Below are positions 3,976 to 52,066 of a DNA stretch of 64,000 nt, in pieces. The translations under genes were made by a program, and so were the position numbers. Location of the stretch: positions 336,470 through 400,469 of the forward strand of contig NZ_JAAAPJ010000005.1 in the NCBI RefSeq assembly GCF_009909145.1, in the 5' to 3' direction. Source of the stretch: Corallococcus silvisoli. Its GTDB lineage: Bacteria; Myxococcota; Myxococcia; Myxococcales; Myxococcaceae. The notes beneath the pieces were generated by a model. That model saw nothing but the letters and a program-made list of their open reading frames with translations. It had not been told where the DNA came from and did not search any database. The stretch's first letter is position 1; every line of letters starts with the position of its first letter.

Positions 3976-3994
3976 CGCGTGCGCCTCCGTCACC

Positions 3995-6671: not shown

Positions 6672-6685
6672 CCGGAGTCATCGCC

Positions 6686-7522: not shown

Positions 7523-7529
7523 CGTCGCG

Positions 7530-9594: not shown

Positions 9595-9609
9595 CGGCGC
9601 CGTCCCCCG

Positions 9610-11466
9610 TCACCGCCTCCGCTGCAGGGCCAGCCGGTTGCGCAGGTGCACCGAGGGGGACACGTAGCGCTCCGCCAGGCGCTGCTGGTCGGTGATGTCG
9701 ACCGCGAGGTCCACGCCGGTGACGGCCCGGTACGCGTGGATGTAGCCCTGGATCTCCGGCCGCCAGTAGCGCGCCCAGTTGGCGGCCTGGTTCGGGTCGT
9801 TCGTGATGCTCCACGCGCCGTAGCGCACGGCCAGGAGCACCTGCTCGCCGTAGACGGCGAGGTCGTGGAAGTGCACCACGCTGACGTCCGTCCACCCCAG
9901 GAGCGACTTCATCGCATCCACCCGGTCCATCCACGGCTCCGGGTAGGGCACCATCACCCGCCCGCCGAGGAACTCGCGCATCTCCGGGCGCGACAGCAGC
10001 CACTGCTGCATCAGCATCTCCTGGCGCGCGGTGGAGGGCATGTCTCCGAACTGGTTATGGGCCCCCTGCGCCAGCAGGTAGTGCGTCTCCTTGAGCGAGT
10101 TGAGCACCGGGAAGCCGTCCGACACCACGGTGGTGTCATCGTCCTGCCGGAAGAACTGCACGCATTGGTGGAGCAGGTTGTGGAAGGACTCGAGGAACTT
10201 CGAGCGCCGATCCGCGGTGCGCATCCCGGACACGGCCTTGCCGTGCAGCGTGAAGCCATATTCGTGGTCGTACTCGTGGGCGCGGCGCACGACGCTCAGC
10301 CGGTGCTGCTCGTCCTGGAGGTAGCCCCACAACACGTTGTTGAGGGGCCGCAGCGGATCGATCTCCATGTTCGCCAGCGGATCCCGGTCCCCGGGCCCGC
10401 GCACGTTCTGGAAGCGATTGCTGATGTAGTTCATCGCCTGGACCAGCATTCCCTCCTCGTGCCAGTAGTTCCAGATGAGCTCCAGGAAGGTGGGGTAGCC
10501 CAGCTTCTGCTGGAGGATGCCGTAGCAAGCGGCGTAGTCGTCCTCCGGAATGTTCCGAGGCGCGATGACCGGCACGTCGGGGAGCTTGTTGCGGATGATC
10601 GCCAGGTAGGGGAGCGCGACATCGGCGCTTCCGTTCACATCCTCCAGGTAGTGCTTCCACACGACCTCGAAGTCGAAATCGCGAGGAAGCGTCTGGCCGA
10701 GGCGACCGCCCTCCACGCGCGCGTCCAGCTTGTCCAGCAGCTCCGTGAAGTCCACCAGCACGCCCGTGCGCTCCAGCATGAAGGCCTCGGTCAGGGCCTT
10801 CAGCTTCCGGTAGGCATCCACGCCAGGGAATGGCAGCCGGAGCTTGGGCTTGCGGATCGGGGTCGGCCTGCCCGGGCCCGGCAGGCCCGTGCCCGGGTCC
10901 GTCATGTGGTCGGGCGGGCAGAGGTGTGCGTCGATGAACCGGCTGTATTGATCGAAGGAGAGCCAATCGGTGGTCTTGCGGATGACCATCCAGAGGATGA
11001 CGTCGGTCGTCAGCGGATGAAGGGTGCGCTGCAGCGCCACGGGGAGGACAGGCATGCGTCCAGCCGCGCCGAAGGAGTTGAGCTCGTTGAGCGCTTCGCG
11101 CACCACCTCCCGGACGTTCCTGTCGCCCTCTCCCGGGAGGAGGGTCAGCGACTGTTCGGCTTCCCAGGTGAACGCGGGCCTGGTGGAGCCCGCCCCTTCG
11201 AACTCCTCGAGGATGACCTTGGCCTTGAGGACGCCCGCGCGCCTCGAGCTGGGAATCGTCCAGGTCGCGTGGCCATTGAGCTCCTGCCTGTCCGCGCTGG
11301 ACTTGGAGACCGGGGGTTCGACGCTGCCGGCCTCCACGGACCATCTGTAGACCCGATGCGTGAGCTTCGGGTTCACGTGGACGGGGGACGCCGACAGTTC
11401 GACGGTGGCACCCGAAGCGCTCGAGGTGACGGTGGTGGGTGAGAGAGTGAGTGTGACGCCAGCCAT
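9610..11466 (-). CDS. Large hypothetical protein, 618 aa, no recognisable domain (operon gene C)
   Basis: High GC3. ATG 11466 is preceded by GGAGGA (the track ORF starts at TTG 11481). N-terminal ~110 aa is beta-rich, followed by a long helical region (FLELIWNYWHEEGMLVQAMNYISNRF, HEYDHEYGF). Confidence 0.8.
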   Translation of the reverse strand: MAGVTLTLSPTTVTSSASGATVELSASPVHVNPKLTHRVYRWSVEAGSVEPPVSKSSADRQELNGHATWTIPSSRRAGVLKAKVILEEFEGAGSTRPAFTWEAEQSLTLLPGEGDRNVREVVREALNELNSFGAAGRMPVLPVALQRTLHPLTTDVILWMVIRKTTDWLSFDQYSRFIDAHLCPPDHMTDPGTGLPGPGRPTPIRKPKLRLPFPGVDAYRKLKALTEAFMLERTGVLVDFTELLDKLDARVEGGRLGQTLPRDFDFEVVWKHYLEDVNGSADVALPYLAIIRNKLPDVPVIAPRNIPEDDYAACYGILQQKLGYPTFLELIWNYWHEEGMLVQAMNYISNRFQNVRGPGDRDPLANMEIDPLRPLNNVLWGYLQDEQHRLSVVRRAHEYDHEYGFTLHGKAVSGMRTADRRSKFLESFHNLLHQCVQFFRQDDDTTVVSDGFPVLNSLKETHYLLAQGAHNQFGDMPSTARQEMLMQQWLLSRPEMREFLGGRVMVPYPEPWMDRVDAMKSLLGWTDVSVVHFHDLAVYGEQVLLAVRYGAWSITNDPNQAANWARYWRPEIQGYIHAYRAVTGVDLAVDITDQQRLAERYVSPSVHLRNRLALQRRR

Positions 11467-24746: not shown

Positions 24747-26189
24747 GTGCGGGAGGAGCCGGGGCCCCGGAGCCTGGGGTATGAGCACGGGGTGCTCGTG
24801 TCCTCGCGCGTCCGCTCCCTGCTGTCCCTCCTCACCGTGGCCATGACGGGAGGGGGCGCGTCCGTGGCCTGGGCCGAGGAGGAGCCCGGGGCCGCCTCCG
24901 GCCCGCCGGAGGTCGCGGAGGTGCGGGTGGAGGGCGTGGACAAGACGAGGCCCTCGACGGTGCGTTCGTACGCGCGGCTGGACGTGGGTGACACCGTCGA
25001 CGAAGAGCTGCTGCGCAAGGTGGAGCGGCGCCTGCTGGCCACGGGCCTGTTCCAGGAGGCCCACGCGAGCACGGAGCCCCTGCCCGACGGCCGCGTGCGG
25101 CTGGTGCTGAAGGTGACGGACAAGGCGTCGTGGGTGGTGGCCCCGACGGTGGCCTTGTCCTCCGCCAACACCGGCGGCGGCCTGCTCTACGCGGAGAACA
25201 ACCTGGCCGGCCGCGCGAAGAAGTTCGCCGTCGCCGGGCAGGTCAGCACCGCCGAGAGCGGCCTGTACGTGGGCTTCCTGGACCCGCTCCTCTTCGGCCT
25301 GCCCCAACTGAAGTTCAGCCTGGAGGGCCAGCTGCGCAGCGACCGCGTGGACGAGTACCTTCCAGGGGCGAGCCAGGCGGATCCGGAGATCCTCCGGCGC
25401 ACGCGGCTCAACTCCGCGGCCCTGGGCGCGGAGCTGGGCTTCATCCTCTTCGAGCGGGTGCGCGCGGCGGCGAAGTACCGCGTGTCCAGCATCGACGCGC
25501 AGTCGCCGGACCCGAAGAAGCCGGTCACAGCGCAGGCGTTCTCCACCGGCCCCGCCCTGCGCGACACGTCGCTGCGCTTCATGGTGGGCCTGGACTCGCG
25601 CCAGACGCTGCACGCGGTGACGGAGGGCCTCAACCTGGAGGGCTCCTACGAGGTGTCCGTCCCGGGCGTGTGGAGCGAGTTCCGCTACCGCAAGTTCAGC
25701 GTCCTCTACCGCCAGGGCCTGCGCTTCTTCAGCGAGCACAACCTGGTGCTGCGCGGCGAGCTGAACGTGGGAAAGGACCTGCCCTTCCACCAGGAGCTGG
25801 TGATGGGCGGCACCACCCTGCGGGGCTTCCAGTACCGCCAGTTCCGCGGCGACACCCGGCTCACCCTCAGCGCCGAGTACCACTTCCCGCTCTTCTCCGT
25901 GAAGTCGCTGGCCTTCCGCGGCGTGGGCTTCTCCGACACGGGCGCCATCGCGTGGAGGGACCTGCCCGCGGATGGAACGCTGACCGACACCACCGGTCGC
26001 GTCATCCGCCGTTACCTGCCGGAGTCCAGGTCCGGCCTGGACCACGCCACCGTGGCCCAGGGCGTGGGCGCGGGCCTGCGGCTGTACTTGAGCAACGTCG
26101 TCCTGCCCCTGCTGGGCGTGGACGTCGCGTACGGCGTCAACTCCGGCCAGGTGCGCGTCTACCTCGTGGCCGGAGTCACGCCCTCCTGA
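24747..26189 (+). CDS. Omp85/BamA-family outer-membrane protein with one POTRA-like domain
   Basis: Signal peptide ...LLSLLTVAMTGGGASVAWA. POTRA-like VRVEGVDKTRPSTVRSYARLDVGDTV. C-terminal beta-barrel region (bacterial surface antigen type). Start uncertain: GTG 24747, 24792 or 24798. Confidence 0.75.
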   Translation: MREEPGPRSLGYEHGVLVSSRVRSLLSLLTVAMTGGGASVAWAEEEPGAASGPPEVAEVRVEGVDKTRPSTVRSYARLDVGDTVDEELLRKVERRLLATGLFQEAHASTEPLPDGRVRLVLKVTDKASWVVAPTVALSSANTGGGLLYAENNLAGRAKKFAVAGQVSTAESGLYVGFLDPLLFGLPQLKFSLEGQLRSDRVDEYLPGASQADPEILRRTRLNSAALGAELGFILFERVRAAAKYRVSSIDAQSPDPKKPVTAQAFSTGPALRDTSLRFMVGLDSRQTLHAVTEGLNLEGSYEVSVPGVWSEFRYRKFSVLYRQGLRFFSEHNLVLRGELNVGKDLPFHQELVMGGTTLRGFQYRQFRGDTRLTLSAEYHFPLFSVKSLAFRGVGFSDTGAIAWRDLPADGTLTDTTGRVIRRYLPESRSGLDHATVAQGVGAGLRLYLSNVVLPLLGVDVAYGVNSGQVRVYLVAGVTPS

Positions 26190-26195
26190 GCGCCC

Positions 26196-27164
26196 TCAGC
26201 TGGCGCGGGCGCTGACGTCCGCGTCCGCCGGGTCCGGGACCTTCACGCCGGGCCAGTCCTCCGGCGCCAGGTCCAGGCTGAAGGGCGGCGCCTCGCCGCG
26301 CAGCGTGTGCCACAGCGCGTAGTCCGCGCACAGCGCCTGCGCGATGCGGCCGGACGTCGTGCGAACGCGCTCCACGACCGCCTGATGCTCCTCGGGCGTC
26401 TGCGCCTCCAGCATCGCGACGACGTTCTCCCAGACGCGCTGCCGCCAGACGATGAGCATCTGCATGACGGCCCGCTCCACCATGGGGCGGCTGAAGGGCA
26501 CGAGCAGGACGAGCTTCGTGGACGTGCAGTGGTAGCGCTCGACGAGCAGATCCAGACACTCGGGGATGCACGAGCGGAGGATCTCATTCACGTGGAAGTA
26601 GTCGTGCCGGTAGCGCGCCATGCGCCGCGCATCCGCCGGGGGAGACTGGTGCGCGATGTTGTCGTAAACGACCATGCCCAGGTCGTGGTTGATGTGCGCG
26701 CTGACGCCCAGGAGCGCGTCCTGGAACGGCCGCGTGAGTCGCTGGGCCGGATAGTGCGTCGCGAAGCGCCAGGCGGCCGTGGGCAGCGGCAGGTTCTTCA
26801 GCGAGTCCCGCACCGCGATGAGCGCCTCCTCCGCGAAGCGGCCCGTCAGATGCGACAGCCACTCGGGCTCCAGGAACCCGCCCGCGTCCGGCTGGCTCAA
26901 CAGGTGGACCACCCGCCGTGTGACAATGGCGTAGATGTCCAGGAAGATGGCGCGTGAATCATCCCGTGCGTTCAGCCGGGCGAGGATCTTCTCCAGACCC
27001 TCCAGCGCTTCCTCCGCGTTGATGGGATTCCAGAGGACGTCATCCAGTTGGATGGGGCCCGTGTCTTCCGGGGCCTTCGTCTCATGGAGGTGGACGGCCT
27101 TCGAACGATTCTTCCGGTGCGGCTCGGGGGAAACCGGTGAAACATTCATGGAGTGACGCTCCAC
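26196..27164 (-). CDS. Hypothetical protein, DUF5995-like
   Basis: DSRAIFLDIYAIVTRRV and GVSAHINHDLG resemble the DUF5995 family as I remember it. Alternative start ATG 27149. Confidence 0.6.
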   Translation of the reverse strand: MERHSMNVSPVSPEPHRKNRSKAVHLHETKAPEDTGPIQLDDVLWNPINAEEALEGLEKILARLNARDDSRAIFLDIYAIVTRRVVHLLSQPDAGGFLEPEWLSHLTGRFAEEALIAVRDSLKNLPLPTAAWRFATHYPAQRLTRPFQDALLGVSAHINHDLGMVVYDNIAHQSPPADARRMARYRHDYFHVNEILRSCIPECLDLLVERYHCTSTKLVLLVPFSRPMVERAVMQMLIVWRQRVWENVVAMLEAQTPEEHQAVVERVRTTSGRIAQALCADYALWHTLRGEAPPFSLDLAPEDWPGVKVPDPADADVSARAS

Positions 27165-27305: not shown

Positions 27306-28559
27306 TCAGGGCGCGGTGCCTTCGCTCACGCCACTGCCCGTCTTGCCCAGCACATACTTCGCGAGCGTGAGGGCGTTGGCCTCGTCGAGGAGGGATTCGT
27401 AGGTGGGCATCTGCGTCCCGGGCTTGAAGGACTCCGGGTTGCGGATCCACTTCGCCACCTCTTCGGCGGGCTTGCCCTTCGCGCCCTGGAGCTTGGCCTC
27501 GAACTGCTTGTTGGCGCCGTGGCACGAGGCGCAGCCCAGGGAGCTGAACAGCTTCTCCGGGTCGTTGGTGGGCTCCGCCTTGGGACGGCCACCGGCGGGG
27601 GGCGGCACGGCCTTGTCGTTGGCCTTCATCGTGCGCAGGAAGGTGTAGATGGCGGTGAGCTCCACGTCGTCCGCGTAGCGGTACTTGGGCATCGGCGCGC
27701 GCAGGATGTAGCCGCCCGGCGTCACACCGGTCTTCATCGCGAGCTTGAACTCCTCCAGCGTCCACTTTCCGATACCGGCCGTCTCGCTGGGGGTGATGTT
27801 GGGCGACAGCAGCTTGCCCTCGCCGCCCATGGGCGTGAGGTCGAACTCGAAGCCGCCGCTCAGCACCGTGTCCGGGTTCTTCAGCTTCGCCGCGCTGCCC
27901 TCGAAGCCGGGCGAGTGGCAGAAGACGCAGTCGTAGACGCTGGCGGACACGTAGCGGCCGTACTCCACGGAGTCCGCCGCCTTCGCGGGGATGACCACCG
28001 GCTCCGTGCGGGCCTTGTCGTTGATGCCCATCGCGAAGGAGAACACCATCCGGCCCATGGGCGTCAGCACGGAGCGCGGCGGCTGGGACTGCTCCGGCGC
28101 GAAGTCCGGGTGACCGGAGCGCATGAAGCCAATCACCGCCGCCAGGTCCTTGTCGCCCATGTTGGGGAAGGCCGGCATGGGGCGCACGTGGTTGTCACGG
28201 TCGATGGCGTTGATGACCATGCGGGCGATCTCCTCGTCCTTCCAGGCGCCCACGCCCTTCTCCGGATCCGAGGTGATGTTCGCCGAGTAGAACGTGCCCA
28301 GCTCCGGCGGGAAGTCGTGCATCTGCACGCCGGTGGGCTTCGTGTTGCCGCCGCCAGCGTGACACTCGGCGCACACCGCGCGGAACACCTGCTCACCGCG
28401 GGCGATGCCCTCCGGTGAGCTGTCTCGCTGGATGTTCGGCAGTGCCACGTCCGCGTAGGACTTGTTGATCTTGTGGGTGGCGACACCCATCGCGGTGCCC
28501 GCGCCAATCAAGACCAGGACGACCAATGCTCCAAGGGCCAGCAGTATCTTCTTCACCAT
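27306..28559 (-). CDS. Membrane-anchored tri-haem c-type cytochrome
   Basis: N-terminal TM helix and three CxxCH motifs (CAECH, CVFCH, CASCH). Resembles the cytochrome c subunits of membrane-bound dehydrogenases. Confidence 0.85.
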   Translation of the reverse strand: MVKKILLALGALVVLVLIGAGTAMGVATHKINKSYADVALPNIQRDSSPEGIARGEQVFRAVCAECHAGGGNTKPTGVQMHDFPPELGTFYSANITSDPEKGVGAWKDEEIARMVINAIDRDNHVRPMPAFPNMGDKDLAAVIGFMRSGHPDFAPEQSQPPRSVLTPMGRMVFSFAMGINDKARTEPVVIPAKAADSVEYGRYVSASVYDCVFCHSPGFEGSAAKLKNPDTVLSGGFEFDLTPMGGEGKLLSPNITPSETAGIGKWTLEEFKLAMKTGVTPGGYILRAPMPKYRYADDVELTAIYTFLRTMKANDKAVPPPAGGRPKAEPTNDPEKLFSSLGCASCHGANKQFEAKLQGAKGKPAEEVAKWIRNPESFKPGTQMPTYESLLDEANALTLAKYVLGKTGSGVSEGTAP

Positions 28560-28594
28560 GGGGAACGTTGCTCCGGCAGGACGGGGACACGGCT

Positions 28595-28629
28595 CTCCGC
28601 CGGTCCCCTCGAAAGGGGAGCCGGCGGAG
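28595..28629 (-). other. Intercistronic stem-loop (14 bp with one bulge)
   Basis: CTCCGCCGGTCCCC-tcgaaa-GGGGAGCCGGCGGAG, between the lipoprotein stop (28662) and the cytochrome start (28559). No T-tract. Confidence 0.4.
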
Positions 28630-28661
28630 CGGAGGCGTTGGGACGGGGTGTGACGGGGGTG

Positions 28662-29774
28662 CTACTGCCCGGGCACGCAGGTGCTGGGCGGGGGAATCGA
28701 CGGCGTCGTCGACGGGGTGCTGCTCGCCATCTGGAGGCCGGCGAACGTGACGATGCCGGGGATCTGCGGAATGGCCAGCGCCTGGAGCAGCCAGGGCCGC
28801 CCCTCCGGCGCGCTCGTCGTGGAGTCCTTCGCCGTGTACGTGACGACCGGCGGCGGGCCCATCAGCGGCGGGTGGACGACGGCGACCAGGCCCAGGCTGC
28901 TGTTGGGGGCGGGCGGGCCGGGCGGGATGAAGAAGCCGCGCGGCGACTGGAGCGGCGCCAGCGGCGGCGGCAGCGCGCCCACCGGTGCCCACTCGATGTT
29001 GAGCACGCGGCCGGACGTGGCCTCCACGGTGGTGTTCGCCGCGGGCACGCGGAAGACGGGGAACCCCGGGCGGTAGAGCCAGAAGACCGTCACGCCGCCG
29101 AAGCGGGCCGGGTTGAGCAGGTCCTGCACCGTGACGGAGGTGCCCTCGGAGCTCAGGCGCCGGGCCACCGCGTCCAGGATGCCCTTGTCGCTCACCTGGA
29201 GCGCCTCCAGGCCCACGCACGCGCTGTGGGCCGGCACCACCGGACGCACGGTCATCGTGGTCAGGTAGTTGCCTTCCACGACGGGCGGCAGCGGCGGCGA
29301 CGGGGCGTCGTTGGCCAGCGTGCCCTGCTGTCCCAGCGACAGGACGAAGAACGGCGCGCCCCGGCGGGTGGGCACCTTCTCCAGGGTCCACAGGCCCGTG
29401 GGCCCGGACACCACGGGCGCGGGCGGCGGGGGCGGCTGCCCCGTGGCCGGGTCCGGCACCGTGTCCTGCAGGGTCACCAGCGCGTTGCGCACCACCGAGC
29501 GCTGCAGCAGCGGGCTGAACTCCGCGTACAGCGGCGGCAGCTGGCACTGCGTGCCCGGCGGGGCGCAGTTGGCCAGGTTGATGAAGTAGGCCTCCGGATC
29601 CACCGTGAAGCCGGTGAGCCGGGAGGTCAGACCCTCCGGCTCGCGGTTCTGGTAGTTCGGGCGCGGGATGAACGTCGACACCGCGGGGGAGGAGGATTCC
29701 TGGCAGCCGGCGCCCAGCAGGGCCGCGCCAAGGAGCGTTCCAACGTAGAGGGCTCTTTGCATGGCTCGTCGCAT
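28662..29774 (-). CDS. Lipoprotein of unknown function
   Basis: Lipobox LLGAGC. Starts 3 nt after the upstream stop. No recognisable domain. Confidence 0.8.
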   Translation of the reverse strand: MRRAMQRALYVGTLLGAALLGAGCQESSSPAVSTFIPRPNYQNREPEGLTSRLTGFTVDPEAYFINLANCAPPGTQCQLPPLYAEFSPLLQRSVVRNALVTLQDTVPDPATGQPPPPPAPVVSGPTGLWTLEKVPTRRGAPFFVLSLGQQGTLANDAPSPPLPPVVEGNYLTTMTVRPVVPAHSACVGLEALQVSDKGILDAVARRLSSEGTSVTVQDLLNPARFGGVTVFWLYRPGFPVFRVPAANTTVEATSGRVLNIEWAPVGALPPPLAPLQSPRGFFIPPGPPAPNSSLGLVAVVHPPLMGPPPVVTYTAKDSTTSAPEGRPWLLQALAIPQIPGIVTFAGLQMASSTPSTTPSIPPPSTCVPGQ

Positions 29775-29777
29775 CCC

Positions 29778-31688
29778 CTACTTCGCGGGGAGGATGTGTC
29801 GGGAGGGAAGCTGATCGCCGCCGTGGCACGTCTGCGCGCAGTTGCCGAACCGGCTGGGCGTGCCGCGCTGACTGAAGGCGATCTGGAAGAACTCGTCACC
29901 GTGCTGAGACACGTGGCACGAGCCGCACAGCGACAGGCTGGGCCGCTCGGTGCTCTTGCGCGTCAGGTGGCAGACGGTGCAGTCCGCGCGGTTCGCCGGG
30001 TAGCTGGGCGAGTTCATGTGGATGCGGTGCACCATCTCCTGCGTGCGGCCCACCGTGTCGGTGTCGTAGTGGTGGCACACCTTGCAGCTCTCGATGTGGT
30101 CCACCGACAGGCCGTGGCGCAGGTTGTCCAGCGACAGCACGCCGCGGTGGCACAGCTGGCAGTTGCCCACGTTGCCCGGGTAGGTCGTCGGCTCGTCCTG
30201 GCCCACCTGGAAGAAGAACGGCGACATCTTCGCCACGCGCTCGCCCATGGCGGCGCGGTTGAACTTCACCAGCGCCACGTAGGTGCCCGGCTTCGCGTCC
30301 GCGGGCAGCGTGAACGTCTGGCGCGTGGGCCACTTGAAGTCGACGAGGCCCGGCGTCAGCCCCGTGAGCGTGGCGTCATCCAGGAAGGCGAACGGGAACG
30401 GCTTGGCGAAGAACTGGGGCTTGTCGCCCGGGTCGCCCAGCACCTTCAGGTCCTGGATGGGACCGGCGATGGCCACGTTGGAGATGGAGTCGTTCTCCGT
30501 GATGATCCCGATGACGTTGGGGACGAACGTCATGATGCCGTTGGCCTGGTTGGTGATGATCTCCTTCGCGGACGGCAGCAGGTCCGGCGAGTGCAGGTGG
30601 GCGCCCGCGCTGTCGCGCAGGTCGACGTACATGCTCACGTCCTCGCCGGGCTTGTAGAAGCTGCCCTCCTTCGGGGGCGAGAACACCAGCCGCGAGTCCA
30701 GGCCCGGGCTGCACTGCACCGCATTGCCGCTGTCGTCGGTGCAGGTGGACGGGCGGTCATCCGGGATGACGTACGTCACCGGGAAGTAGAACGGGCGGTC
30801 CGGCAGCTGGCTCCAGGTCGCCTTGAGCGCGCCGGGGCCCGACAGGCGCGGGATGCGCAGCACCTTGAAGGGGTTGGTGCTGCCCACCATGTCCACGCGC
30901 GCGATGGTGCGGAACGTGGGGCCCTGCGCCATGCCACCCGGGAAGCCCGCCACGTTGCGGGTCTCCTTGTCACCGGGGAAGCGCGGCGCCTGCAGGTTCT
31001 CCGAACGCCAGGAGAAGCGGCTGTGGCCCGCGTAGGGCGAGGACGCCAGCAGCTCCGAGCGCAGGTACGTCTGGCTGGCGCGCGGGGCGCCCGTCTCGTC
31101 CAGCACCTCCACGGTGATGGTGTCGCCCTTCACCTTCTGCCAGTTCGCGTTGCCGAACTGCACCTCGCGGGTCCAGCAGTCCTCCACGGCCCCGCCGAGG
31201 CTGTAGAAGCTCCACTCGTCCGCGCCCTGGTTGACGTTGCTCCAGTCCAGGCCCGCGAAGACCGACTGGTTCTTGATCCACCCCAGCGCGGCGCTCAGGT
31301 CGGTGGGGTTGGTGTGCTGGTTGACCACCGTCTCCGAGACGGAGAACTGGTTCAGGAAGTACTGGGTGTCCGACAGGATCTGCAGCGTGCCCGTGGGGGG
31401 CGACAGCGTCAGCGGATCCTGGCCGAGCGGCGTGATGCACACGTCCGGGTACGGGACGGGCACTCCGTTCTTCGCGACCATCTGCCCGTTGGGAAGAAAG
31501 GCGCAGCCGTTGATGTACTGGAGGCTGAGCCGGATCGCGCCGGAATCAAGCCCCTGGTACGGGTCGAACCGCTTGGCGCCGCGCCCCGTGGTGGAGCCTT
31601 CGTCGTCGGTGACCTTGAGGAGGTTGCAGGACAGCAGGGGCACCAGCAGGGCGCACCACGCGCTCTTGCGTAGGATTGAGCGGATCAT
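29778..31688 (-). CDS. Multihaem c-type cytochrome lipoprotein (4 CxxCH + 1 CxxxCH)
   Basis: Lipobox-like LLSC after MIRSILRKSAWCALLVP. C-terminal CQLCH, CKVCH, CTVCH, CGSCH and CAQTCH. Large beta-rich N-terminal region. The track ORF is trimmed to ATG 31688. Confidence 0.8.
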   Translation of the reverse strand: MIRSILRKSAWCALLVPLLSCNLLKVTDDEGSTTGRGAKRFDPYQGLDSGAIRLSLQYINGCAFLPNGQMVAKNGVPVPYPDVCITPLGQDPLTLSPPTGTLQILSDTQYFLNQFSVSETVVNQHTNPTDLSAALGWIKNQSVFAGLDWSNVNQGADEWSFYSLGGAVEDCWTREVQFGNANWQKVKGDTITVEVLDETGAPRASQTYLRSELLASSPYAGHSRFSWRSENLQAPRFPGDKETRNVAGFPGGMAQGPTFRTIARVDMVGSTNPFKVLRIPRLSGPGALKATWSQLPDRPFYFPVTYVIPDDRPSTCTDDSGNAVQCSPGLDSRLVFSPPKEGSFYKPGEDVSMYVDLRDSAGAHLHSPDLLPSAKEIITNQANGIMTFVPNVIGIITENDSISNVAIAGPIQDLKVLGDPGDKPQFFAKPFPFAFLDDATLTGLTPGLVDFKWPTRQTFTLPADAKPGTYVALVKFNRAAMGERVAKMSPFFFQVGQDEPTTYPGNVGNCQLCHRGVLSLDNLRHGLSVDHIESCKVCHHYDTDTVGRTQEMVHRIHMNSPSYPANRADCTVCHLTRKSTERPSLSLCGSCHVSQHGDEFFQIAFSQRGTPSRFGNCAQTCHGGDQLPSRHILPAK

Positions 31689-31909
31689 GGAAGACGAGGC
31701 CGGGGGAAGGCAGAGGGAGGAAGGGAAGGAGGTGCACTCACGCGCAGGCCCACGCGTCCTACCCTTCCCGACGCCGCCACCACTTCGCCACGCGAAGTCG
31801 GTGAGGGCCGGCAAGGGTTGGGAGGAGAACACCTCATCGCATCAAACTGACCACATTATGAGAGTCCGCGCAATTCGCGAACCTCCCGGGGAATACCGGA
31901 CACGGTGGA

Positions 31910-32851
31910 TCAGCGGCCTCCCGGGAGGAGAAGGAAGCCCGCGGACAACAAGAGCGCGAAGACGAGCCCCAGGCCCGCCGTCCTGCCCAGGTGGGGATTG
32001 AGGGCGCTGCCGTCCTCGCGCCAGATGGCGCGGATCTCCCGGGCCGCCAGCGGGAGCGCCAGCAGCGGACAGAGCCACGCCAGCGGGTGTCCCGGCAGCG
32101 TCATCCAGGAGATGACGGGGATGACGAACGCGCCGACCACCGCCACCGTGTACTCCCACTGACCGAAGGCCCGGCCAAAGCGCACCACCAGCGTGCGCTT
32201 GCCGGCGGCCCTGTCCGTGTCGCGGTCCCGCAGGTTGTTCACCGCGAGGATTCCGGACGCGATGAGCCCCATGGACAGGCCCGCGAGCACGACGCCCGGC
32301 GTGACGTGGTGGGCGAGCACGGCGTAGCTGCCGGACACCCCGGACAGGCCGAAGATGAGCAGCACCAGCACGTCCCCCAGGCCCATGTAGCCCAGGGGCA
32401 CCGGGCCCGCGGAATAGAAGACCGCGCCCGCGAGACAGAAGGCGCCGCCCGCGAACACGGGCCAGCCCCCCACCGGGGTCAGCACCAACAGCGCGAGCAT
32501 GGAGCCAGCGAACGCCAGGGCCGCGGCGCTCGCCACCTCGCGCGCGCTCAGCCAGCCCTTCTGGGTGACGCGCGCGGGCCCCAGCCGCTCGGCCGTGTCC
32601 GCGCCGCGCTCGAAGTCCGCGTAGTCGTTCACCAGGTTGCTGACGATCTGCATCAGCACGAAGCCCACCAGGAACGTGAGCGCTGGCGCGGGCCGCCAGC
32701 TGCCTTCCGCGTTGGCGAAGGCCCAACCCAGCAGGGTCGGAGCCACCGACGCGGTCAGCGTCTTGGGGCGCAGCGCGAGCCACCAGATGCGCGCCAACGG
32801 GGGTTTTGCTTCAAGCGCGACACTCGACGACGGGGGATTCGGAGTGGCCAT
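31910..32851 (-). CDS. menA: 1,4-dihydroxy-2-naphthoate polyprenyltransferase
   Basis: UbiA-family polytopic protein with the NDYADFERGAD motif and MenA-like overall pattern. ATG 32851 preferred over the track start 32908. Confidence 0.8.
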   Translation of the reverse strand: MATPNPPSSSVALEAKPPLARIWWLALRPKTLTASVAPTLLGWAFANAEGSWRPAPALTFLVGFVLMQIVSNLVNDYADFERGADTAERLGPARVTQKGWLSAREVASAAALAFAGSMLALLVLTPVGGWPVFAGGAFCLAGAVFYSAGPVPLGYMGLGDVLVLLIFGLSGVSGSYAVLAHHVTPGVVLAGLSMGLIASGILAVNNLRDRDTDRAAGKRTLVVRFGRAFGQWEYTVAVVGAFVIPVISWMTLPGHPLAWLCPLLALPLAAREIRAIWREDGSALNPHLGRTAGLGLVFALLLSAGFLLLPGGR

Positions 32852-32916
32852 GTGACCCTGGGGGAAGGGCAGCAGGCGCACGCTAGTGCTACAAAACATC
32901 CGTATCAATACGTCTC

Positions 32917-33066
32917 ATGTCTCAAATGAAACATCCTCACTCTCAGGAATCATGTGTTTTATCGCCCAGAAACGTAAAAACCGATAACTCGAAACACGCG
33001 CATCCGGCGCGACGGCACCAGAGCAGAATAAGCAGATTTACGAGCTTAAAATGCTCTCCCGGGTGA
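32917..33066 (+). CDS. Candidate 49-aa small ORF in an AT-rich intergenic region
   Basis: MSQMKHPHSQESCVLSPRNVKTDNSKHAHPARRHQSRISRFTSLKCSPG. Low GC3 and no SD sequence. Ends 14 nt before the lipoprotein gene. Shares the MS-x-MKH start with the ORF at 37518. Confidence 0.2.
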   Translation: MSQMKHPHSQESCVLSPRNVKTDNSKHAHPARRHQSRISRFTSLKCSPG

Positions 33067-33079
33067 TAAGACCCGGGGC

Positions 33080-33775
33080 ATGATCCCTTCCCATCTCCCG
33101 CTCTCCCGTTCCCCTTCCCTTTCGCGTCGGAGTGTCCTGGCGCTGCTCGGCGTCGTCGCGCTCGCGCTCGGCGGCTGCGACACGGCGCTCTCCATCGCCG
33201 ACGCGCGTTCGCGTGGCACCGGCGCGGAGGTGACGGTGGAGGGCACCGTCACCGTGGCCCCCGGCACCTTCGCCTCCGCGTTGGGGGACGAAGGGTTCGC
33301 GATCCAGGACGACACCGCCGGCCTCTACGTCAAGGTGGCCGAGAAGCTGTCGTTCGGGCTGGGCGCCCGCGTGCGCGTCACCGGCACGCTGGATGAGCAG
33401 AACCAGCTGCGCATCCTCAAGGCCGTGCCCGCGGACGTCGAGCTGAAGTCCGGAACCGGGACCGTGCCCCCGAAGGACGTCTCCACCGGCGGCGTGAACG
33501 AGTCCGTGGAGGGCCAGCTCATCCGCGTCAGCGGCGCCATCACCCAGGCGTTCCAGGACGACTCGCCCTACGGCTACAAGCTCTACATCAACGATGGCTC
33601 TGGCGAGGTGCAGGTGTTCGTGCACGTGTCGGCCGGCTTCGACGCGGCGGCGCTGAAGGCCCTCGCCGTGGGCCAGCGCATCCAGGTGGTGGGCCTGGCC
33701 GCCCAGTACGAAACGACCTACGAGGTCGCGCCCCGCATGCCGGGCGACCTCGTCGTCCAGACGACGACCCCCTAG
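33080..33775 (+). CDS. Lipoprotein of unknown function
   Basis: Lipobox LALGGC. Two beta-rich halves (EVTVEGTVTVAPG..., QLIRVSGAITQAF...). Confidence 0.8.
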   Translation: MIPSHLPLSRSPSLSRRSVLALLGVVALALGGCDTALSIADARSRGTGAEVTVEGTVTVAPGTFASALGDEGFAIQDDTAGLYVKVAEKLSFGLGARVRVTGTLDEQNQLRILKAVPADVELKSGTGTVPPKDVSTGGVNESVEGQLIRVSGAITQAFQDDSPYGYKLYINDGSGEVQVFVHVSAGFDAAALKALAVGQRIQVVGLAAQYETTYEVAPRMPGDLVVQTTTP

Positions 33776-44921: not shown

Positions 44922-46337
44922 ATGCGCATCGCCATCATCGCCACGTACACCCATCCGACCCGCCTGCGGATCAAGGAACCCTCCATCATGCAGTCCTCCG
45001 TGCCGGAGCTGATCGCCGGCCTGTGCCCGGAGCACGCGCAGGTGGAGATCTTCAACGAGAAGGAGGCCGACCTGCCGTTGGACAGGCACTGGGACCTGGT
45101 CTTCTTCTCGTACCTGCACTCGTACTACGAGCACACCAAGGTGCTCTCCACCCTCTTCCGTCAGCGCGGCATGACGACGGTGGCGGGCGGGCGGCACGCC
45201 AGCCACTTCCCCGACGACGCGGCCCTCTATTTCGACGCGGTCATCACCGGCGAGCCCGAATCCAACGTGCCCGCGCTCATCGCCGACTTCGAGAAGGGCG
45301 AGCTGAAGCCGCGCTACAGCCTGCCGTCGCAGGGCGCCGCGGCCATCCGCCCGTACCGCTACGAGCTCATCGACTTCACGCACAACAAGGTGCGCCTGCC
45401 GGGCATCGAGGCGTCGCGAGGCTGCCCCTTCACCTGCAACTTCTGCGTGCTCACCGGCCACGAGCGCTACCGCTTCCGCCCCATCCCCGAGGTCATCGAC
45501 GAGATCCAGACGCGCATGCGCTGGAACCCGAACTTCCTGGGGCTGATGGATGACGCCTTCGTCTTCCTGGACAACAACCTGGGCGGCTCCCCCAAGTACC
45601 TGCGCGCGCTTTGCGAAGCGCTCATCCCCTTGAAGAAGACCTGGGGCTGCGCCCTCACCTTCAACGTGCTCAAGGATGAAGCGCTGGTGAAGCTGATGGC
45701 GAAGGCGGGCTGCCGCTACGTCTACACCGGCCTGGAGTCCCTCAACCCGGACTCCATCAAGGCGATGAACAAGGGGCAGAACAAGCTGTCGGAGGTGGAC
45801 GCCGTCATCCGCCGCGTCTTCTCCGCCGGCATCCTGCTGTCCTTCGGGCTCATCGTCGGCTCGGACGGCGACACCAACGAATACCTGCACCGGCTGCCGG
45901 AGTACCTGGCGGACCTGAAGTACTTCTCCGTCACCTTCCTGGGCATCGTGTGCCCGTATCCGGAGACGCCCTTCTTTCGCGAGCTCCAGGCGGACAACCG
46001 GCTGCTGCCGGGCACCACCAGCCGCGACTATGACGGCTACACGCTGTGCCACCGGCCCAAGCAGCTCCACGGGTCGGAGGTGGTGGAGCACTTCCGCCGG
46101 CTGTGTCACACGCTGGGGAGCCTGCCCAACATCGCGCGGCACTACGCGTCCAAGCTGATGATGAGCGACCTGCCCCGCTACAAGCAGACCATCCTCTTCT
46201 CCGGGCCGGAGATCATCAGCATCCGCAACCCGGTGAAGAACCCGGCGCGCCGCTACATCGCGGGCCTGGACGCCATCGAGGAGTGGGACGTGAAGCAGAT
46301 GGCCGCGCTGGGCCTCAAGCCCCAGCTTCTGACCTGA
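44922..46337 (+). CDS. B12-binding-domain radical SAM enzyme
   Basis: N-terminal Rossmann-like MRIAIIATY...VFFSYLH...VAGGRHAS, followed by the radical SAM cluster motif CPFTCNFC. The track ORF is trimmed to ATG 44922. Confidence 0.85.
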   Translation: MRIAIIATYTHPTRLRIKEPSIMQSSVPELIAGLCPEHAQVEIFNEKEADLPLDRHWDLVFFSYLHSYYEHTKVLSTLFRQRGMTTVAGGRHASHFPDDAALYFDAVITGEPESNVPALIADFEKGELKPRYSLPSQGAAAIRPYRYELIDFTHNKVRLPGIEASRGCPFTCNFCVLTGHERYRFRPIPEVIDEIQTRMRWNPNFLGLMDDAFVFLDNNLGGSPKYLRALCEALIPLKKTWGCALTFNVLKDEALVKLMAKAGCRYVYTGLESLNPDSIKAMNKGQNKLSEVDAVIRRVFSAGILLSFGLIVGSDGDTNEYLHRLPEYLADLKYFSVTFLGIVCPYPETPFFRELQADNRLLPGTTSRDYDGYTLCHRPKQLHGSEVVEHFRRLCHTLGSLPNIARHYASKLMMSDLPRYKQTILFSGPEIISIRNPVKNPARRYIAGLDAIEEWDVKQMAALGLKPQLLT

Positions 46338-47145
46338 GCCGGGACGGCAGGCGCACGTCCCACGCCAGCCCCACGGCCTGGAGCGCGCGGATGAAGAGCC
46401 AGCCTGGATCCCACTGCCACCACACCCAGCCATGCCGCGCGGACGCGGGGAAGGCGTGGTGGTTGTTGTGCCAGCCCTCGCCCAGCGCGAGGACGCTCAC
46501 CCACCACACGTTCCGGCTCTGGTCGCGCGTGTCGTGGACGCGCGAGCCGAACGCGGCGTGGCACACGGAGTTCACCGCGTAGGTGCTCTGCATCCAGCAC
46601 ACCACCGGCAGGAAGAAGTACGCGGGCACCGCGCGCCAGCCGAACGTCAGCCCCACCGCGAGCACCGCCAGCACCTGCGGCGCGATCCGGTAGCGCAGGA
46701 GCCAGTGGTAGTAGCCGTCCTGCGCCATGTCGCGGCACCAGGTGCGCCAGCCGTCCTCCTCCGTGGAGGCCTCGTTGAGGATCCACCCCATGTGCGCGTA
46801 CCAGAAGCCGCGCACGGGCGAATGCACGTCGCCCTCCATGTCCGCCTTCGCGTGATGCAGCCGGTGGTTGGCGGCCCACAGCAGCGGGCTGCCCTGGGCC
46901 GTCAGCATGGCCACCGTCACCAGCGCGTACTCCACCCAGCGGGGGCAGGCGAAGGCCCGGTGGCAGAGGAGCCGGTGCAGCCCCACCGTGGTGCCCAGCC
47001 CGATGGACACGTACACCCCCAGCGCCACCGGCAGCGCGTACGGAGGCCACGGGAGGAAGAAGGCCAGCGCGGCCAGCGCATGCACCACGAGCATGTAGCC
47101 GACGATGACGGGACTGAACCGGAAGCGGAGCGGAGCGGTGGTCAT
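46315..47145 (-). CDS. Acyl-CoA (delta-9-type) fatty-acid desaturase
   Basis: Histidine boxes HRLLCH, HRLHH and HNNHH. Only the last 276 codons of track ORF 46315-49815 are used. The 3' end overlaps the radical SAM gene by 23 bp. Confidence 0.85.
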   Translation of the reverse strand: MTTAPLRFRFSPVIVGYMLVVHALAALAFFLPWPPYALPVALGVYVSIGLGTTVGLHRLLCHRAFACPRWVEYALVTVAMLTAQGSPLLWAANHRLHHAKADMEGDVHSPVRGFWYAHMGWILNEASTEEDGWRTWCRDMAQDGYYHWLLRYRIAPQVLAVLAVGLTFGWRAVPAYFFLPVVCWMQSTYAVNSVCHAAFGSRVHDTRDQSRNVWWVSVLALGEGWHNNHHAFPASARHGWVWWQWDPGWLFIRALQAVGLAWDVRLPSRLRSEAGA

Positions 47146-47216
47146 GGCCTGGTGCGGAGTCGAAGGGGAGGCACGCAGCGTAGGGGCCGGGCCTGACGGC
47201 GCGGGGGGATGCACGG

Positions 47217-50200
47217 TCACCCCCCCCGCGCGGCGCGGAGCGGCGGGAGCGCCGCGGTGCCGGGCAGCAGGGCCTGCATCGCGGCCTGGAAGCGGTCCAT
47301 GCGGCGCAGCTCCGCGTGGGCCTCCACCTGCGTGAAGATGGCCCGGGCGCGGGCCAGGAACGCGTCCCGCCGGTGCGGCAGCGCCACCGCCGCGTCGAAG
47401 TAGGCCACGCCCGTCTCCCAGCGGTTGGGGCTCTTCTCCAGGACGGCGATGGCCTCCAGGAACACCGGCTCCGCGGCCCTCGGGCCCTTGCGCAGGGCCA
47501 GGGCGCGCGCCGTCACGCGCAGCGCCGGGCCCTTGAGGTACGGGTACAGCCGGGCGATCACGCGCGCCTTGAGGCAGGCCAGCCGCACGATGCGCAGCAG
47601 CTTCTTGCGCGACACCACCGTGGCGCCCTCCTCCAGCGCGAAGAGGGCCGCCTCCGCCGCGTCCACCAGCCCCACCTGGAGGAAGGGCACCAGCACCTGG
47701 TAGCTCCAGATGCTCTTGAAGCAGCGCACCGCGACGAGCGCCGCCTCCTCCACCTGGTGCTCGCGCACGGTGACGTTGGCCAGGTGGTTGAGGCTCGCGC
47801 ACTGGTTGGCCAGGTCCGCCACCTCCATGCTGATGCGCAGGCCCTGCTCCATCTCCGCGCACAGCTCGCCGACGTCGCCTTCGCCCAGCAGGTAGCGGCA
47901 CATGGGCGCCCACGAGTGCGCCCAGCCCTGGTGCATCAGCGCGTTGAGCTCCAGGCCAATGGTCCCCATCTGCTCGTAGAGCGACTCCGCCGTCCGGAAG
48001 CGCGAGTGGAGGAACTCCCCTGTCGCCTGCATCATCAGGGACGTCTGGCGCTCCCAGCGCTCGCCCACCTGGCGCAGCGTGGAGACGGCCTCCTCCTGGA
48101 ACTCCCGCGCGCGCTCCAGCTCGTTGGCGAAGAAGGCCTGGATGCCCAGGCGGCTGAGCGCGAGCCCCTCCGCCACGGGGTCGCGGGAGCGCAGTGCGTA
48201 GGTGAGCGCCCGCTCGCAGTGCAGCCGCGCGCGCTTGAGCAACCCCGCGCCGAACAGCAGCGTGCCGTAATAGCCGCTGGCGAGGCTCATGGCGTAGTCG
48301 CTGCGCGAGCGCTCCGCCATGTTGGTGGACACCAGCGTCGCCCAGGTGAGCTTGGTGATGTCCGCGAAGTAGTAGATGCGGATGAGCGAGTTGAGCGTGG
48401 ACAGCTGCTGGAGGTAGTTGCCCAGCCGCGACGCGGGCAGCGGCCGCAGCACGAACGGCATCAGCGTGGCCAGCCCCCGGAGGAGCAGGTTGCCCAGCGT
48501 CCGCGCGCCCAGCGCGGCCAGGTTCCCGGGGAGGCTGCGGCCTCGGAGGACCAGCGACTGCTCCAGGTGCTGCGTGGCCAGCGCGGACTCGCCCTTCTCC
48601 TGGTGCGCGCGGCCCAGGCCCAGGTGCAGCTCCGCCTGCTGCGGCACCTCCTCCTCGTCCACCAGGCACTGCTCGAACATCAGGATGGCGTTGGCGTAGT
48701 GGCCCGCCTGGAGCAGCGTCTCCGCCAGCTCCTGCATCACCCGGCGCGTCTTCAGCAGCATCGCCTCCGGGTCCACCGGCACGACGGTGCCCAGGAGCTC
48801 CAACCCCCGGTTGTAGTGGTAGAGGGCGTCGTCGTTGGCGTACTGCGCCCGCGCGCTGCGGGCCGCCATCAGCGTGTACTCCAGGCCCTTGTCCTCCACG
48901 TTGCCCGCGAGGAAGTGGAACGCGAGCAGACCCGCGGAGCCCGCGAGGTTGTCGCTCGCGCGGGCCTCCAGGTAGCGCGCGAGCCGGCGGTGCAGGTCCT
49001 CGCGCGCCGACACCAGCAGCGTGTTGTAGGCCACGTCGCGGATGACGATGTGCTTGAAGAGGCAGGTGTAGGGCTCCTCCGCCTCCAGGAGGGTGAGGCC
49101 CAGGCGCCGGAGCGTGTCCATGGCCTCGCGGAGCCTCGGGCCGGCCAGGGAGGGCACCAGCGCCGCCACCGCGTCCAGCGTGAAGATGCGCCCGATGACG
49201 GACGCCACCTTCACCACCAGCTTCTCCGTCTCGCTCAGCAGGTCGATGCGCGACAGCACCACGTCCTGGATGGAGTCCGGGAGCAGCAGGTCCTGCAGGC
49301 CGCGCTTCACCTCCATCCGCGACGCGCCGGGCTCCACCGGTCCCAGGTAGCCCTGCTCCGCCAGGCCCTCCACGATGGACTCGATGAAGAACGGGTTGCC
49401 CTGCACCTTCGCGAGCAGCCGCTCCTCCAGCGCCACGTCCGGCGGCGACAAGCGCAGGTGCACGCGCAGGAGCGCTCGCGTGTCCTCGTCGTCCAGGCTG
49501 CTCAGGTCCACCGGACAGTACTCGGGCGTGTCGCGCAGCCCCTTGAGCTGGTCGCCCGGGCGCATCGTCGCCAGCACCATGATGCGGTGCGACCCCACGC
49601 GCGCCGCGAGGTGCTGGAGCAGGTCCAACGAGATGTAGTCCGCCCAGTGCAGGTCCTCGAAGAAGAGCAGCAGCGGCTGCGCGTGGCTGAGCTTCTCCAG
49701 GAGCTGGAAGACGATCTGGAACACCTTCTGCTGCTTGCGCCTCGCGTCCATCCCCGCCGTGACGGACGTCTCCTCCAGGGACATGCCCAGGATGCCCGCG
49801 ACCACGGGCATCCACTCCGGCCCCACGTCCTCCAGGCCGTCCAGCCCCTGCCGCAGGCGCGTCAGCTGCGCCTCCGTGTCATCCGAGTCGTGCAGCCCGA
49901 AGGCCTGGAGCAGCACTTCCTTCCAGGGGAAGAAGGGGGTGAACATCTCGTAGGAGTAGCAGACGCCGTACAGCGCCCGCGCGCCGCCCTCCTCCGCGTC
50001 CTCCAGGACGCGCGCGCCCAGCCGTGACTTGCCGATGCCGGCCTCGCCGGACACCACGCACACGCGGCCCTGGCCGGTGAACGACGCGTTCAGCGCCTCA
50101 TGCAGCACGTTCAGCTCACGGCTGCGGCCGATGATGTCGCCCCGGCCCTTGATGAAGAGGCCGCGGCGCGTCTCCCCCAGCAGCCGGTACACCGGCACCG

Positions 50201-51509: not shown

Positions 51510-51525
51510 CCCCAGGGCCTTCCGC

Positions 51526-51927
51526 TCAGGACAGCGTGGCGTAGCGAAGGTACAGGGCCCCCACGCACACCAGGCCGTAGAGGGGAATCTCCGCCGTCTC
51601 CGTCCAGGGCTGCTGCTTCATCACCGCGCCCCAGATGTGCACCGCCGTCATCAGCCCGCCAATCAGGCCGATGAGCTCGAAGATGACCAGGTGGCTCTTG
51701 GGGTCCGGAATGAACCGCACCACCGCGATGATGACGGACAGCGCCAGGCCCCCCAGGCAGCGCGCGAAGTAGACCGTCAGGTCGTTGTTGCCCGTGGGCA
51801 GCTCCCACCCGAACCAGCGCGCCCACCGCAGTGGGACGAACAGCAACGGCAGTGCGTAGACGATCAGGAACAGCGACGTGGAGAGCGCGAGGAACCAGCT
51901 GGCCAGCGGATAGTCGGGGTTGATCAT
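51526..51927 (-). CDS. Small integral membrane protein (133 aa, 4 predicted helices)
   Basis: MINPDYPLASWFLALSTSLFLIVYALPLLF... High GC3. Ends 16 nt upstream of the cyclase gene. Confidence 0.7.
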   Translation of the reverse strand: MINPDYPLASWFLALSTSLFLIVYALPLLFVPLRWARWFGWELPTGNNDLTVYFARCLGGLALSVIIAVVRFIPDPKSHLVIFELIGLIGGLMTAVHIWGAVMKQQPWTETAEIPLYGLVCVGALYLRYATLS

Positions 51928-52066
51928 GGTGGCGAACGTGGCAGGGGCCTGGCGTCCGCGATGCCGGGCGCACCCTGCCCCACGTGTCCATCCTAGAATC
52001 TTTTCCCACCCCGTGGGGTACCTTCCCCCCACCCACCAAGGCCGGTGGGTCGCCTGCCCCGGCCGG

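Follow-up and report, generated by a model that had tools for sequence, protein, structure and literature searches.

A conserved pair of myxobacterial lipoproteins, one with five haem motifs, beside menA in Corallococcus silvisoli

We analysed a 64-kb window of the Corallococcus silvisoli genome (the whole stretch of DNA considered here, with a G+C content of about 70%), in which four genes follow one another on the minus strand: menA, for 1,4-dihydroxy-2-naphthoate polyprenyltransferase, a five-haem lipoprotein (P1), a second lipoprotein (P2), and a membrane-anchored trihaem cytochrome (P3). An initial annotation had described these genes, their haem motifs and the 3-nt gap between P1 and P2, all of which we confirmed. 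Judged by sequence comparison, P1 and P2 form a real, conserved and uncharacterised module that matches no known enzyme system. The host is an aerobic, menaquinone-using myxobacterium, and we read the locus as MenA together with a Myxococcota-specific electron-transfer module that would work outside the cytoplasm with a small redox-active partner, a tentative reading in which we place somewhat less than even confidence. Myxobacteria have been treated as plain aerobes with a simple menaquinone chain, and the P1-P2 pair suggests an extracytoplasmic redox activity that has gone unrecognised; iron mobilisation, redox-mediator cycling and periplasmic maturation of metabolites are possible activities in these soil predators.

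The five-haem lipoprotein and its partner

The case for a module rests on a neighbourhood set of 60 P1 loci from GTDB species genomes, with flanks of ±8-10 kb. P1 carries five haem motifs in 60 out of 60 loci, and P2 follows it in 59, at gaps of a few to ~160 nt. In the C. silvisoli protein all of the motifs lie within residues 510-622, four of them CxxCH (C510, C535, C570, and C588) and one CxxxCH (C617). Five histidines outside the motifs (H525, H554, H557, H596, and H631) are invariant or at least 90% conserved in the homologue alignment, suggesting that they suffice for bis-His ligation of all five haems. Because the conserved histidines would allow such ligation, P1 looks like an electron carrier or wire rather than a catalytic haem enzyme. 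Catalysis of the NrfA/HAO type was rejected, as P1 has no CxxCK motif and the five distal histidines are present, and NCBIfam matches to catalytic multihaem enzymes (NrfA, HAO/ONR, and octahaem tetrathionate reductase) fell far under their cutoffs.

An AlphaFold model of P1, built on an alignment of 108 homologues (predicted local distance difference test, pLDDT, 85), is beta-rich to about residue 500 and helical in the haem domain that follows, in agreement with the beta-rich N-terminus described in the initial annotation. By structure comparison, the N-terminal region consists of immunoglobulin (Ig)-like or macroglobulin-like beta-sandwiches without a catalytic fold, and a Foldseek search of P1 against the PDB returned merely generic tandem Ig-like arrays (TM ~0.1). 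Structure prediction had been suggested as a way to a catalytic site in this domain; it gave beta-sandwiches only, and no dehydrogenase subunit is encoded nearby. Residues 15-41 have a pLDDT <50 and are disordered in the model, and within the tether that joins the lipid anchor to the sandwiches E30, G35, G37, P43, and Y44 are invariant in the 108 sequences. The haem domain is thus at the end of the chain farthest from the lipid anchor.

Neither P1 nor P2 matched a Pfam or NCBIfam family above its cutoff, and PDB sequence searches with both gave chance-level matches only. The initial annotation had named homology to a characterised enzyme system as the result that would speak against it, and these searches found none. 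The best Pfam match of P1 is PF22113 (MtrC/MtrF pentahaem domains II/IV), at an E-value of 9e-5 and under the gathering score; the same model was the top match in 14 out of 26 P1 homologues. P1 invites comparison with MtrC, OmcA, MtrF, and UndA of Shewanella, which it resembles in its lipoprotein signal (LLSC, Cys21) and, distantly, in the apparent kind of its haem domain. However, P1 has one pentahaem domain with 5 haems where those proteins have two with 10 or 11, and it adds several Ig-like domains and a conserved GRG..FDPY tether. The genes within ±8-10 kb, in the window as well as at related loci, include none for an MtrA/MtrB-type porin-cytochrome, and P2, the constant partner of P1, has no Mtr counterpart. 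The hosts of P1 are aerobic myxobacteria, and its similarity to the Shewanella proteins stays under family thresholds.

P2 begins immediately after P1: its ATG lies 3 nt past the P1 stop codon (TAG GGG ATG). A multispecies Corallococcus protein of 366 aa that starts at Met5 is 100% identical to it. The lipobox cysteine, Cys24, is invariant in 27 homologues. We found no sequence relatives of P2 beyond its own family in Pfam, NCBIfam, PDB, and homologue searches. The model (pLDDT 78) shows beta-sandwiches (transthyretin, CnaB, or carboxypeptidase-regulatory type) and no catalytic fold, and the sequence lacks a cofactor motif.

Lipoprotein sorting in Myxococcus xanthus sends proteins with Lys at +2 to the inner membrane, those with Ala at +7 to the matrix, and the rest to the outer membrane (PMC3222651). 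The sequence after the lipid-bearing cysteine is C-N-L-L-K-V-T in P1, with Asn at +2, and C-Q-E-S-S-S-P in P2; neither protein has +2 Lys or +7 Ala, and +2 Lys occurs in no homologue of either. Because they lack the M. xanthus retention signals, both are predicted to be sorted to the outer membrane.

Neighbourhoods of the pair in different lineages

None of the P1 homologues, which are ~630 aa long, has been characterised; they come from Corallococcus, Myxococcus, Pyxidicoccus, Archangium, Hyalangium, and related metagenome-assembled genomes (MAGs). A profile of P1 matched only 233 proteins in a library of 1.84 billion representative proteins. Among these is a second tier of lipoproteins of ~600-670 aa whose similarity to P1 covers the C-terminal half and the five haem motifs. 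Of 40 proteins inspected from this search, 26 had five motifs, among them 12 out of 12 second-tier proteins of 610-669 aa. Ten of the more distant matches were looked up, two of which had a named source: Pendulispora and a Planctomycetota MAG. This wider metagenomic family of ~600-aa lipoproteins with a C-terminal pentahaem domain is a new lead in itself. The sole locus where tblastn found no P2 is L047, a MAG contig, which carries two P1 paralogues (774-2612 and 7992-9875) with five haem motifs each, ~5 kb apart and with a nonribosomal peptide synthetase (NRPS) between them.

The conserved core is P1-P2, and the neighbours vary by lineage. Loci of three kinds recur around the pair (menaquinone, scaffold-peptide/NRPS, and TonB-receptor), and some P1 loci have no informative neighbours. 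The cytochrome partner is likewise trihaem, dihaem, or absent according to lineage. The initial annotation had treated the three genes beside menA as one unit, which our comparison does not bear out: the unit is P1-P2, the cytochrome changes, and adjacency to menA is restricted to the Corallococcus clade. The pair also occupies differing genomic sites within Corallococcus. Five genes at 44922-52597 of the window are 49-94% identical (four at 89-94%) to genes that flank P1-P2 in L019, L020, and L069, which come from C. llansteffanensis and C. sp. CA053C. These encode a radical SAM protein, a desaturase-like protein, a 1430-aa cyclase/AAA_16 protein, a 150-aa protein, and LDcluster4; at that site the window has a Ser/Thr kinase gene (53734-57054) in place of P1-P2. 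No second copy of P1-P2 was found in the window.

In a neighbour-joining tree of P1, loci linked to menaquinone (men) genes fall into three subclades of one superclade. The Corallococcus clade has the order menA-P1-P2-trihaem cytochrome. In Hyalangium, L011, L009, and L034/L071, a tri- or dihaem cytochrome gene lies 5' of P1 and the unit stands among men genes: menF-cytc-P1-P2-SnoaL-menD-menH-menA-menC-menE in Hyalangium, with shikimate genes alongside, the same order (menF-cytc-P1-P2-SnoaL-menDHACE) in L011, cytc-P1-P2-menF in L009, and menA divergent from cytc-P1-P2-menF-YceI in L034/L071. The men linkage comprises four arrangements in three P1 subclades, where our own estimate for a random locus is 1-2%. 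These findings support the earlier description of an extracytoplasmic haem-protein set linked to menaquinone: the three genes form a conserved set, and the link to men genes recurs. In L071, the region 3' of P2 (13074-15666) encodes an isochorismate synthase, a member of the polyisoprenoid-binding YceI family, and a small cytochrome c with a single haem; on the opposite flank, a gene for a MenA-type prenyltransferase is co-oriented with genes for an NRPS and a P450. In Hyalangium ruber, the main respiratory quinone is reported to be MK-8, a menaquinone (PMC10959286).

A second kind of neighbourhood is linked to a short scaffold peptide and occurs in both main groups of the P1 tree, either side of its deepest split. 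In Myxococcus, Pyxidicoccus, Archangium, and others, P1 and P2 are preceded by the peptide, a Rieske/VanA_C oxygenase, and a dihaem cytochrome, the last of which is absent from the Archangium copy. The M. xanthus genes for the peptide, Rieske oxygenase, dihaem cytochrome, P1, and P2 are co-directional, with gaps of only 18, 36, 75, and 11 nt. On the flanks of operons of this Myxococcus type lie genes for two TldD/PmbA proteins, a DUF1302-like barrel, and an NRPS, and on those of the Archangium copy genes for TldD/PmbA proteases, cupin/JmjC proteins, and ABC exporters. The peptide is 50-62 aa long and ends C-terminally in ...EEIDFLLEEIESKIAPLALA; in four loci (Table 1) it scored 52-56 bits against NCBIfam NF033737 ('ammosamide/lymphostin RiPP family'; cutoff 30), and tblastn placed it upstream of P1 in 25 out of 60 loci. 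In L022/L023, a single strand carries the peptide, a TPR-like protein, P1, P2, an NRPS (C-A-T-C), and a CmlA-type hydroxylase. An NRPS lies within 8 kb of P1 in 28 loci. The ~38% identity between NRPSs of different contexts is generic, and the pair L022 and L071 (43%) alone hints at orthology; the 472-aa protein of M. xanthus and the 606-aa protein of L022 showed no meaningful relationship. A DUF1302-like putative outer-membrane barrel (weak Pfam match, E 6e-4) occurs near P1-P2 in 21 loci, for example at 5824-7242 (minus strand) in L061 and in the 2278-7575 region of L069, where an MMPL transporter and a DUF1329 protein precede it and the group resembles an export set for hydrophobic compounds.

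In the 25 loci with the NF033737 peptide, P1-P2 shares an operon or cluster with the peptide, TldD/PmbA proteases, oxygenases, and an NRPS, a gene content that recalls the pearlin (ammosamide/lymphostin) clusters. The resemblance has limits: no PEARL/LanB-like ligase gene was found within 10 kb of the peptide-P1-P2 operons, the C. silvisoli locus has no peptide, and the published amm/lym descriptions examined mention neither cytochromes nor lipoproteins. Our literature search found nothing relevant on multihaem or MtrC-like proteins of Myxococcus or on pearlin clusters in that genus, and the peptide-P1-P2 cluster appears to be undescribed in the literature searched. An orphan member of the scaffold-peptide family with no PEARL ligase nearby is a further lead, and the compact operon of M. 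xanthus, a genetically tractable species, makes the module directly testable.

These neighbourhoods raise the alternative that P1-P2 and its cytochrome are accessories of a secreted-metabolite pathway, oxidising an exported redox product in the periplasm, reversing that oxidation, or protecting the producer from redox cycling, with the copy beside menA a derived version that acts on a naphthoquinone. The tight M. xanthus operon with peptide and Rieske oxygenase, the gene order of L022, the peptide scores well above the family cutoff, the proteases, cupin/JmjC proteins, and exporters around the Archangium copy, and the number of loci with an NRPS all favour it. However, the trio in the window has no peptide, NRPS, or oxygenase nearby, scaffold-peptide chemistry is cytoplasmic while P1 and P2 are exported, our literature search turned up neither a product nor a description of the cluster, and NRPS genes are very common in myxobacterial genomes. 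We consider both the accessory role and its extension to a naphthoquinone at the menA side rather unlikely, if more credible than the other alternatives discussed below.

The basal P1 clade has a third kind of neighbourhood. A TonB-dependent receptor directly flanks P1(-P2) in L033, L036, L040, L041, and L053 and lies two genes upstream of P1 in L014; the adjacency takes three different arrangements (with P1 at about 8001 in locus coordinates). L033, L040, and L041 also encode a CCP (cytochrome c peroxidase)/MauG di-haem protein. The receptor and CCP/MauG neighbours hint at a role in iron or haem uptake. A receptor gene in the window (57832-60453, minus strand), 26 kb from the trio, encodes a protein with 49% identity over 640 residues to the receptor of L053.

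The module might be an iron-acquisition device, a ferric-chelate reductase or ferroxidase that is held beneath or on the outer membrane, works with a TonB-dependent receptor, and either draws on the respiratory chain or feeds it. MtrC-type haem domains are known to reduce chelated Fe(III), and besides the flanking receptors in five loci, the CCP/MauG proteins in three, and the related receptor in the window, the beta-hydroxylase, NRPS, and isochorismate synthase of other contexts would fit siderophore chemistry. Against this, the receptor in the window is not adjacent to the trio, a window scan with the Fur-box consensus (≤3 mismatches) gave no Fur-box-like site, the link to iron is one of genomic context only, and the association with a complete men operon is left unexplained. 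An iron device is in our view unlikely. Both this and the metabolite-accessory explanation are live, and they overlap in mechanism with the electron relay proposed here.

The anchored cytochrome and the direction of electron flow

P3 is a class-I cytochrome c with three CxxCH motifs (at C63, C211, and C343) and three methionines (Met128, Met290, and Met384) that are invariant in the homologue alignment. A Corallococcus silvisoli protein shows 100% identity to it, and its match to Pfam Cytochrom_C has an E-value of 5e-20. A profile of its homologues matched, in the PDB, the beta subunit of glucose dehydrogenase (GDH; 8e-42), subunit C of fructose dehydrogenase (FDH; 1e-41), and subunit II of alcohol dehydrogenase (ADH; 1e-35), and E-values ranged from 8e-42 to 8e-29 over the cytochrome subunits of glucose, fructose, alcohol, and aldehyde dehydrogenases (ALDH). 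The initial annotation, which had likened P3 to the trihaem cytochromes of quinone-reducing membrane dehydrogenases, was therefore right about its type. An identity as quinol peroxidase or CCP was rejected, as the CCP_MauG match had an E-value of just 0.064. The hydrophobic N-terminus is retained among homologues without a conserved cleavage motif, and for this reason it fits an uncleaved signal-anchor, as far as sequence can tell.

P3 shares with the dehydrogenase subunits the three class-I domains, the CxxCH motifs and Met ligands, and a common S-x-N-I-T...GIG-x-W motif. It differs from them in that no gene for a pyrroloquinoline quinone (PQQ)-dependent or flavoprotein subunit is present in the window or in related neighbourhoods, and in its anchor, an N-terminal helix where the FDH cytochrome subunit has a C-terminal one. 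The quinone of its host is menaquinone and not ubiquinone. In Myxococcus the place of P3 is taken by a dihaem lipoprotein, and in Archangium no cytochrome gene adjoins the pair. It could still be argued that P1, together with P2, is a periplasmic or surface dehydrogenase that passes electrons from an inorganic or organic substrate via P3 into menaquinone, much as acetic acid bacteria use their PQQ or flavin dehydrogenases. The homology of P3 to quinone-reducing GDH, FDH, ADH, and ALDH subunits, the adjoining menA with its recurring men linkage, and a downhill step from low-potential bis-His P1 to His/Met P3 all speak for such an enzyme. However, neither P1 nor P2 has a catalytic domain or cofactor motif, all five haems of P1 can be bis-His, and none of the 60 neighbourhoods contains a gene for a PQQ, flavin adenine dinucleotide (FAD), or molybdenum subunit. 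The menaquinone potential is about -74 mV, and reduction of menaquinone by His/Met c-type haems would be unfavourable. A dehydrogenase thus seems improbable, more so than an iron device. The same haems bear on the conduit to the menaquinone pool proposed in the initial annotation: a conduit is a reasonable idea, but our analysis does not support the proposed direction into the pool, and the His/Met haems of P3 would, if they point either way, tell against it.

We therefore return to the electron relay. P1 would be a tether, a beta-sandwich stalk, and a terminal MtrC/OmcA-like domain of five bis-His haems, acting as a non-catalytic wire or contact surface. P2, its obligate partner and apparently translationally coupled to it, is probably a scaffold or ligand binder. 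P3 would sit in the inner membrane by its uncleaved helix and present three His/Met class-I haems. Here the M. xanthus dihaem cytochrome, a lipoprotein with +2 Lys, offers a parallel: together with the transmembrane anchor of P3 it makes two solutions that put a class-I cytochrome on the inner membrane opposite P1-P2. P3 would exchange electrons with the menaquinone/menaquinol pool or with a respiratory cytochrome c branch and relay them across the periplasm to or from P1-P2 through a predicted contact. The ligation pattern, His/Met in P3 and bis-His in P1, would favour electron flow from P1 to P3. CymA (NapC/NirT) offers a functional analogy, in that a single-helix inner-membrane multihaem cytochrome would link menaquinol to extracytoplasmic multihaem proteins; however, P3 has no sequence relationship to it and carries class-I His/Met haems where NapC/NirT proteins are bis-His tetrahaem cytochromes.

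The partner of P1-P2 would be a small redox-active molecule or metal chelate, such as a quinone-type metabolite or an iron complex, and not a classical substrate. We propose this as the likeliest partner because the pair has no catalytic fold, its haem domain is MtrC-like, and its neighbourhoods are those of biosynthesis and uptake. Outer-sphere electron transfer is the way in which MtrC-type proteins react with flavins, quinones, and chelated metals.

Several points weigh against this relay. In the window itself, tblastn found the NF033737 peptide nowhere, no NRPS is encoded, and no TonB-dependent receptor adjoins the trio, so that the small-molecule partner would be extrapolated from paralogous contexts. 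The similarity of P1 to MtrC is weak. Outward flow from menaquinol via P3 to P1 would be thermodynamically awkward, again from His/Met to bis-His haems, and the coupling of P3 to quinone is itself a candidate, with flow conceivable either way. Cytochromes of the P3 family can also be orphans with no link to P1-P2, as in A. gephyra, and ~35 of the 60 P1 loci have no adjacent class-I cytochrome; because of both, P3 may be a generic carrier and not a dedicated partner of P1-P2. In L071, the menA- and menF-like genes stand beside an NRPS and a P450, so some of the 'men' links may be to natural-product genes, and the adjacency to menA could in part be inherited synteny.

Taken further, these points lead to the alternative that the adjacency to menA is incidental, with P3 a generic shuttle from the bc complex to an oxidase and P1-P2 a structural or adhesive pair that happens to bear haems. 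Orphan P3 homologues fit this view, as do an anchor and class-I layout that resembles CcoP or cytochrome cy (with a partial TIGR00782 match), the many loci where P1-P2 has no cytochrome neighbour, and its relocation between Corallococcus sites. Nevertheless, the retention of five haem sites in 60 loci and in the second-tier proteins argues for a redox function, and four men arrangements in three subclades are far above the chance that we estimated. This is the explanation to which we give the least credence, and we regard it as very doubtful.

Beyond the relay itself, P1-P2 might represent a new class of lipid-anchored, quinone- or metallophore-reactive module that travels with biosynthesis genes for redox-active small molecules. 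On this speculative reading, which is on balance unlikely, the accompanying genes would be those for menaquinone in Corallococcus and Hyalangium, and those for a quinone-like product derived from tryptophan or another amino acid in Myxococcus and Archangium. With similarly low confidence, that product would be built on the ammosamide/lymphostin-family scaffold peptide without a PEARL ligase. If this is true, strictly aerobic myxobacteria would have a dedicated electron route that joins the respiratory chain to a redox mediator or iron chelate of their own making, outside the cell or in the periplasm.

Locus layout and intergenic elements

Table 1. Coordinates of the features of the menA-P1-P2-P3 locus (window positions) and of the scaffold peptides in related loci (locus coordinates)
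Feature	Position	Strand	Description
menA	31910-32851	-	313 aa from ATG; 1,4-dihydroxy-2-naphthoate polyprenyltransferase
menA-P1 intergenic region	31689-31909	-	221 nt; sequence read directly
P1	29778-31688	-	636 aa; lipoprotein
P1 signal peptide and lipobox	31626-31688	-	LLSC, Cys21; Cys21 in ≥90% of 108 homologues
P1 flexible tether	31557-31625	-	residues 22-44; motif E..GRGxxxFDPY, invariant
P1 tandem beta-sandwich region	30189-31556	-	residues 45-500; conserved Cys pairs C62/C84 and C316/C326
P1 pentahaem domain	29781-30188	-	residues 501-636; five motifs and five conserved His
P2	28662-29774	-	370 aa; lipobox Cys24; beta-sandwich; conserved C186 and C-terminal C366
P2-P3 intercistronic stem-loop	28595-28629	-	15-bp stem; centroid -31 kcal/mol; z -2.7
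P3	27306-28559	-	417 aa; class-I trihaem cytochrome c; N-terminal signal-anchor, residues ~5-27
Terminator-like hairpin 3' of P3	27256-27282	-	11-bp G+C-rich stem; z -3.2; no U-tract
NF033737 peptide, L061 (M. xanthus)	7719-7901		
NF033737 peptide, L064	8659-8847		
NF033737 peptide, L022	5883-6047		
NF033737 peptide, L051	569-718		

The menA product belongs to the MenA equivalog family TIGR00751 (187.8 bits, cutoff 102); it scored 252 bits against NF004751, slightly below the cutoff of 264, and matched UbiA (Pfam PF01040) with an E-value of 7e-34. Translation could alternatively start at a TTG farther upstream (32908). The gap between menA and P1 (Table 1) could leave room for a promoter of P1-P2-P3 of their own; a sigma-70 consensus scan of the locus gave no promoter. 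On the 5' side of menA, the ~230 bp at 32852-33080 are unusually A+T-rich for a genome of 70% G+C. This stretch is likely a regulatory or promoter region that menA shares with a divergent gene for a 231-aa protein (33080-33775).

An Rfam gathering scan of 26-34 kb returned no family, the P2-P3 stem-loop included, and a terminator scan passed over both hairpins of Table 1, because they lack U-tracts. Both folded as the initial annotation had described, and they occupy the same two positions in 10 out of 10 other Corallococcus loci checked; across these loci the sequence of the P2-P3 stem varies by species and the pairing is retained. On the 3' side of P3, the window encodes a DUF5995 protein (26196-27164, minus strand) and a 480-aa Omp85/POTRA protein (24747-26189, plus strand), and the two genes are syntenic in 7-8 of 10 Corallococcus loci of the menA-linked clade.

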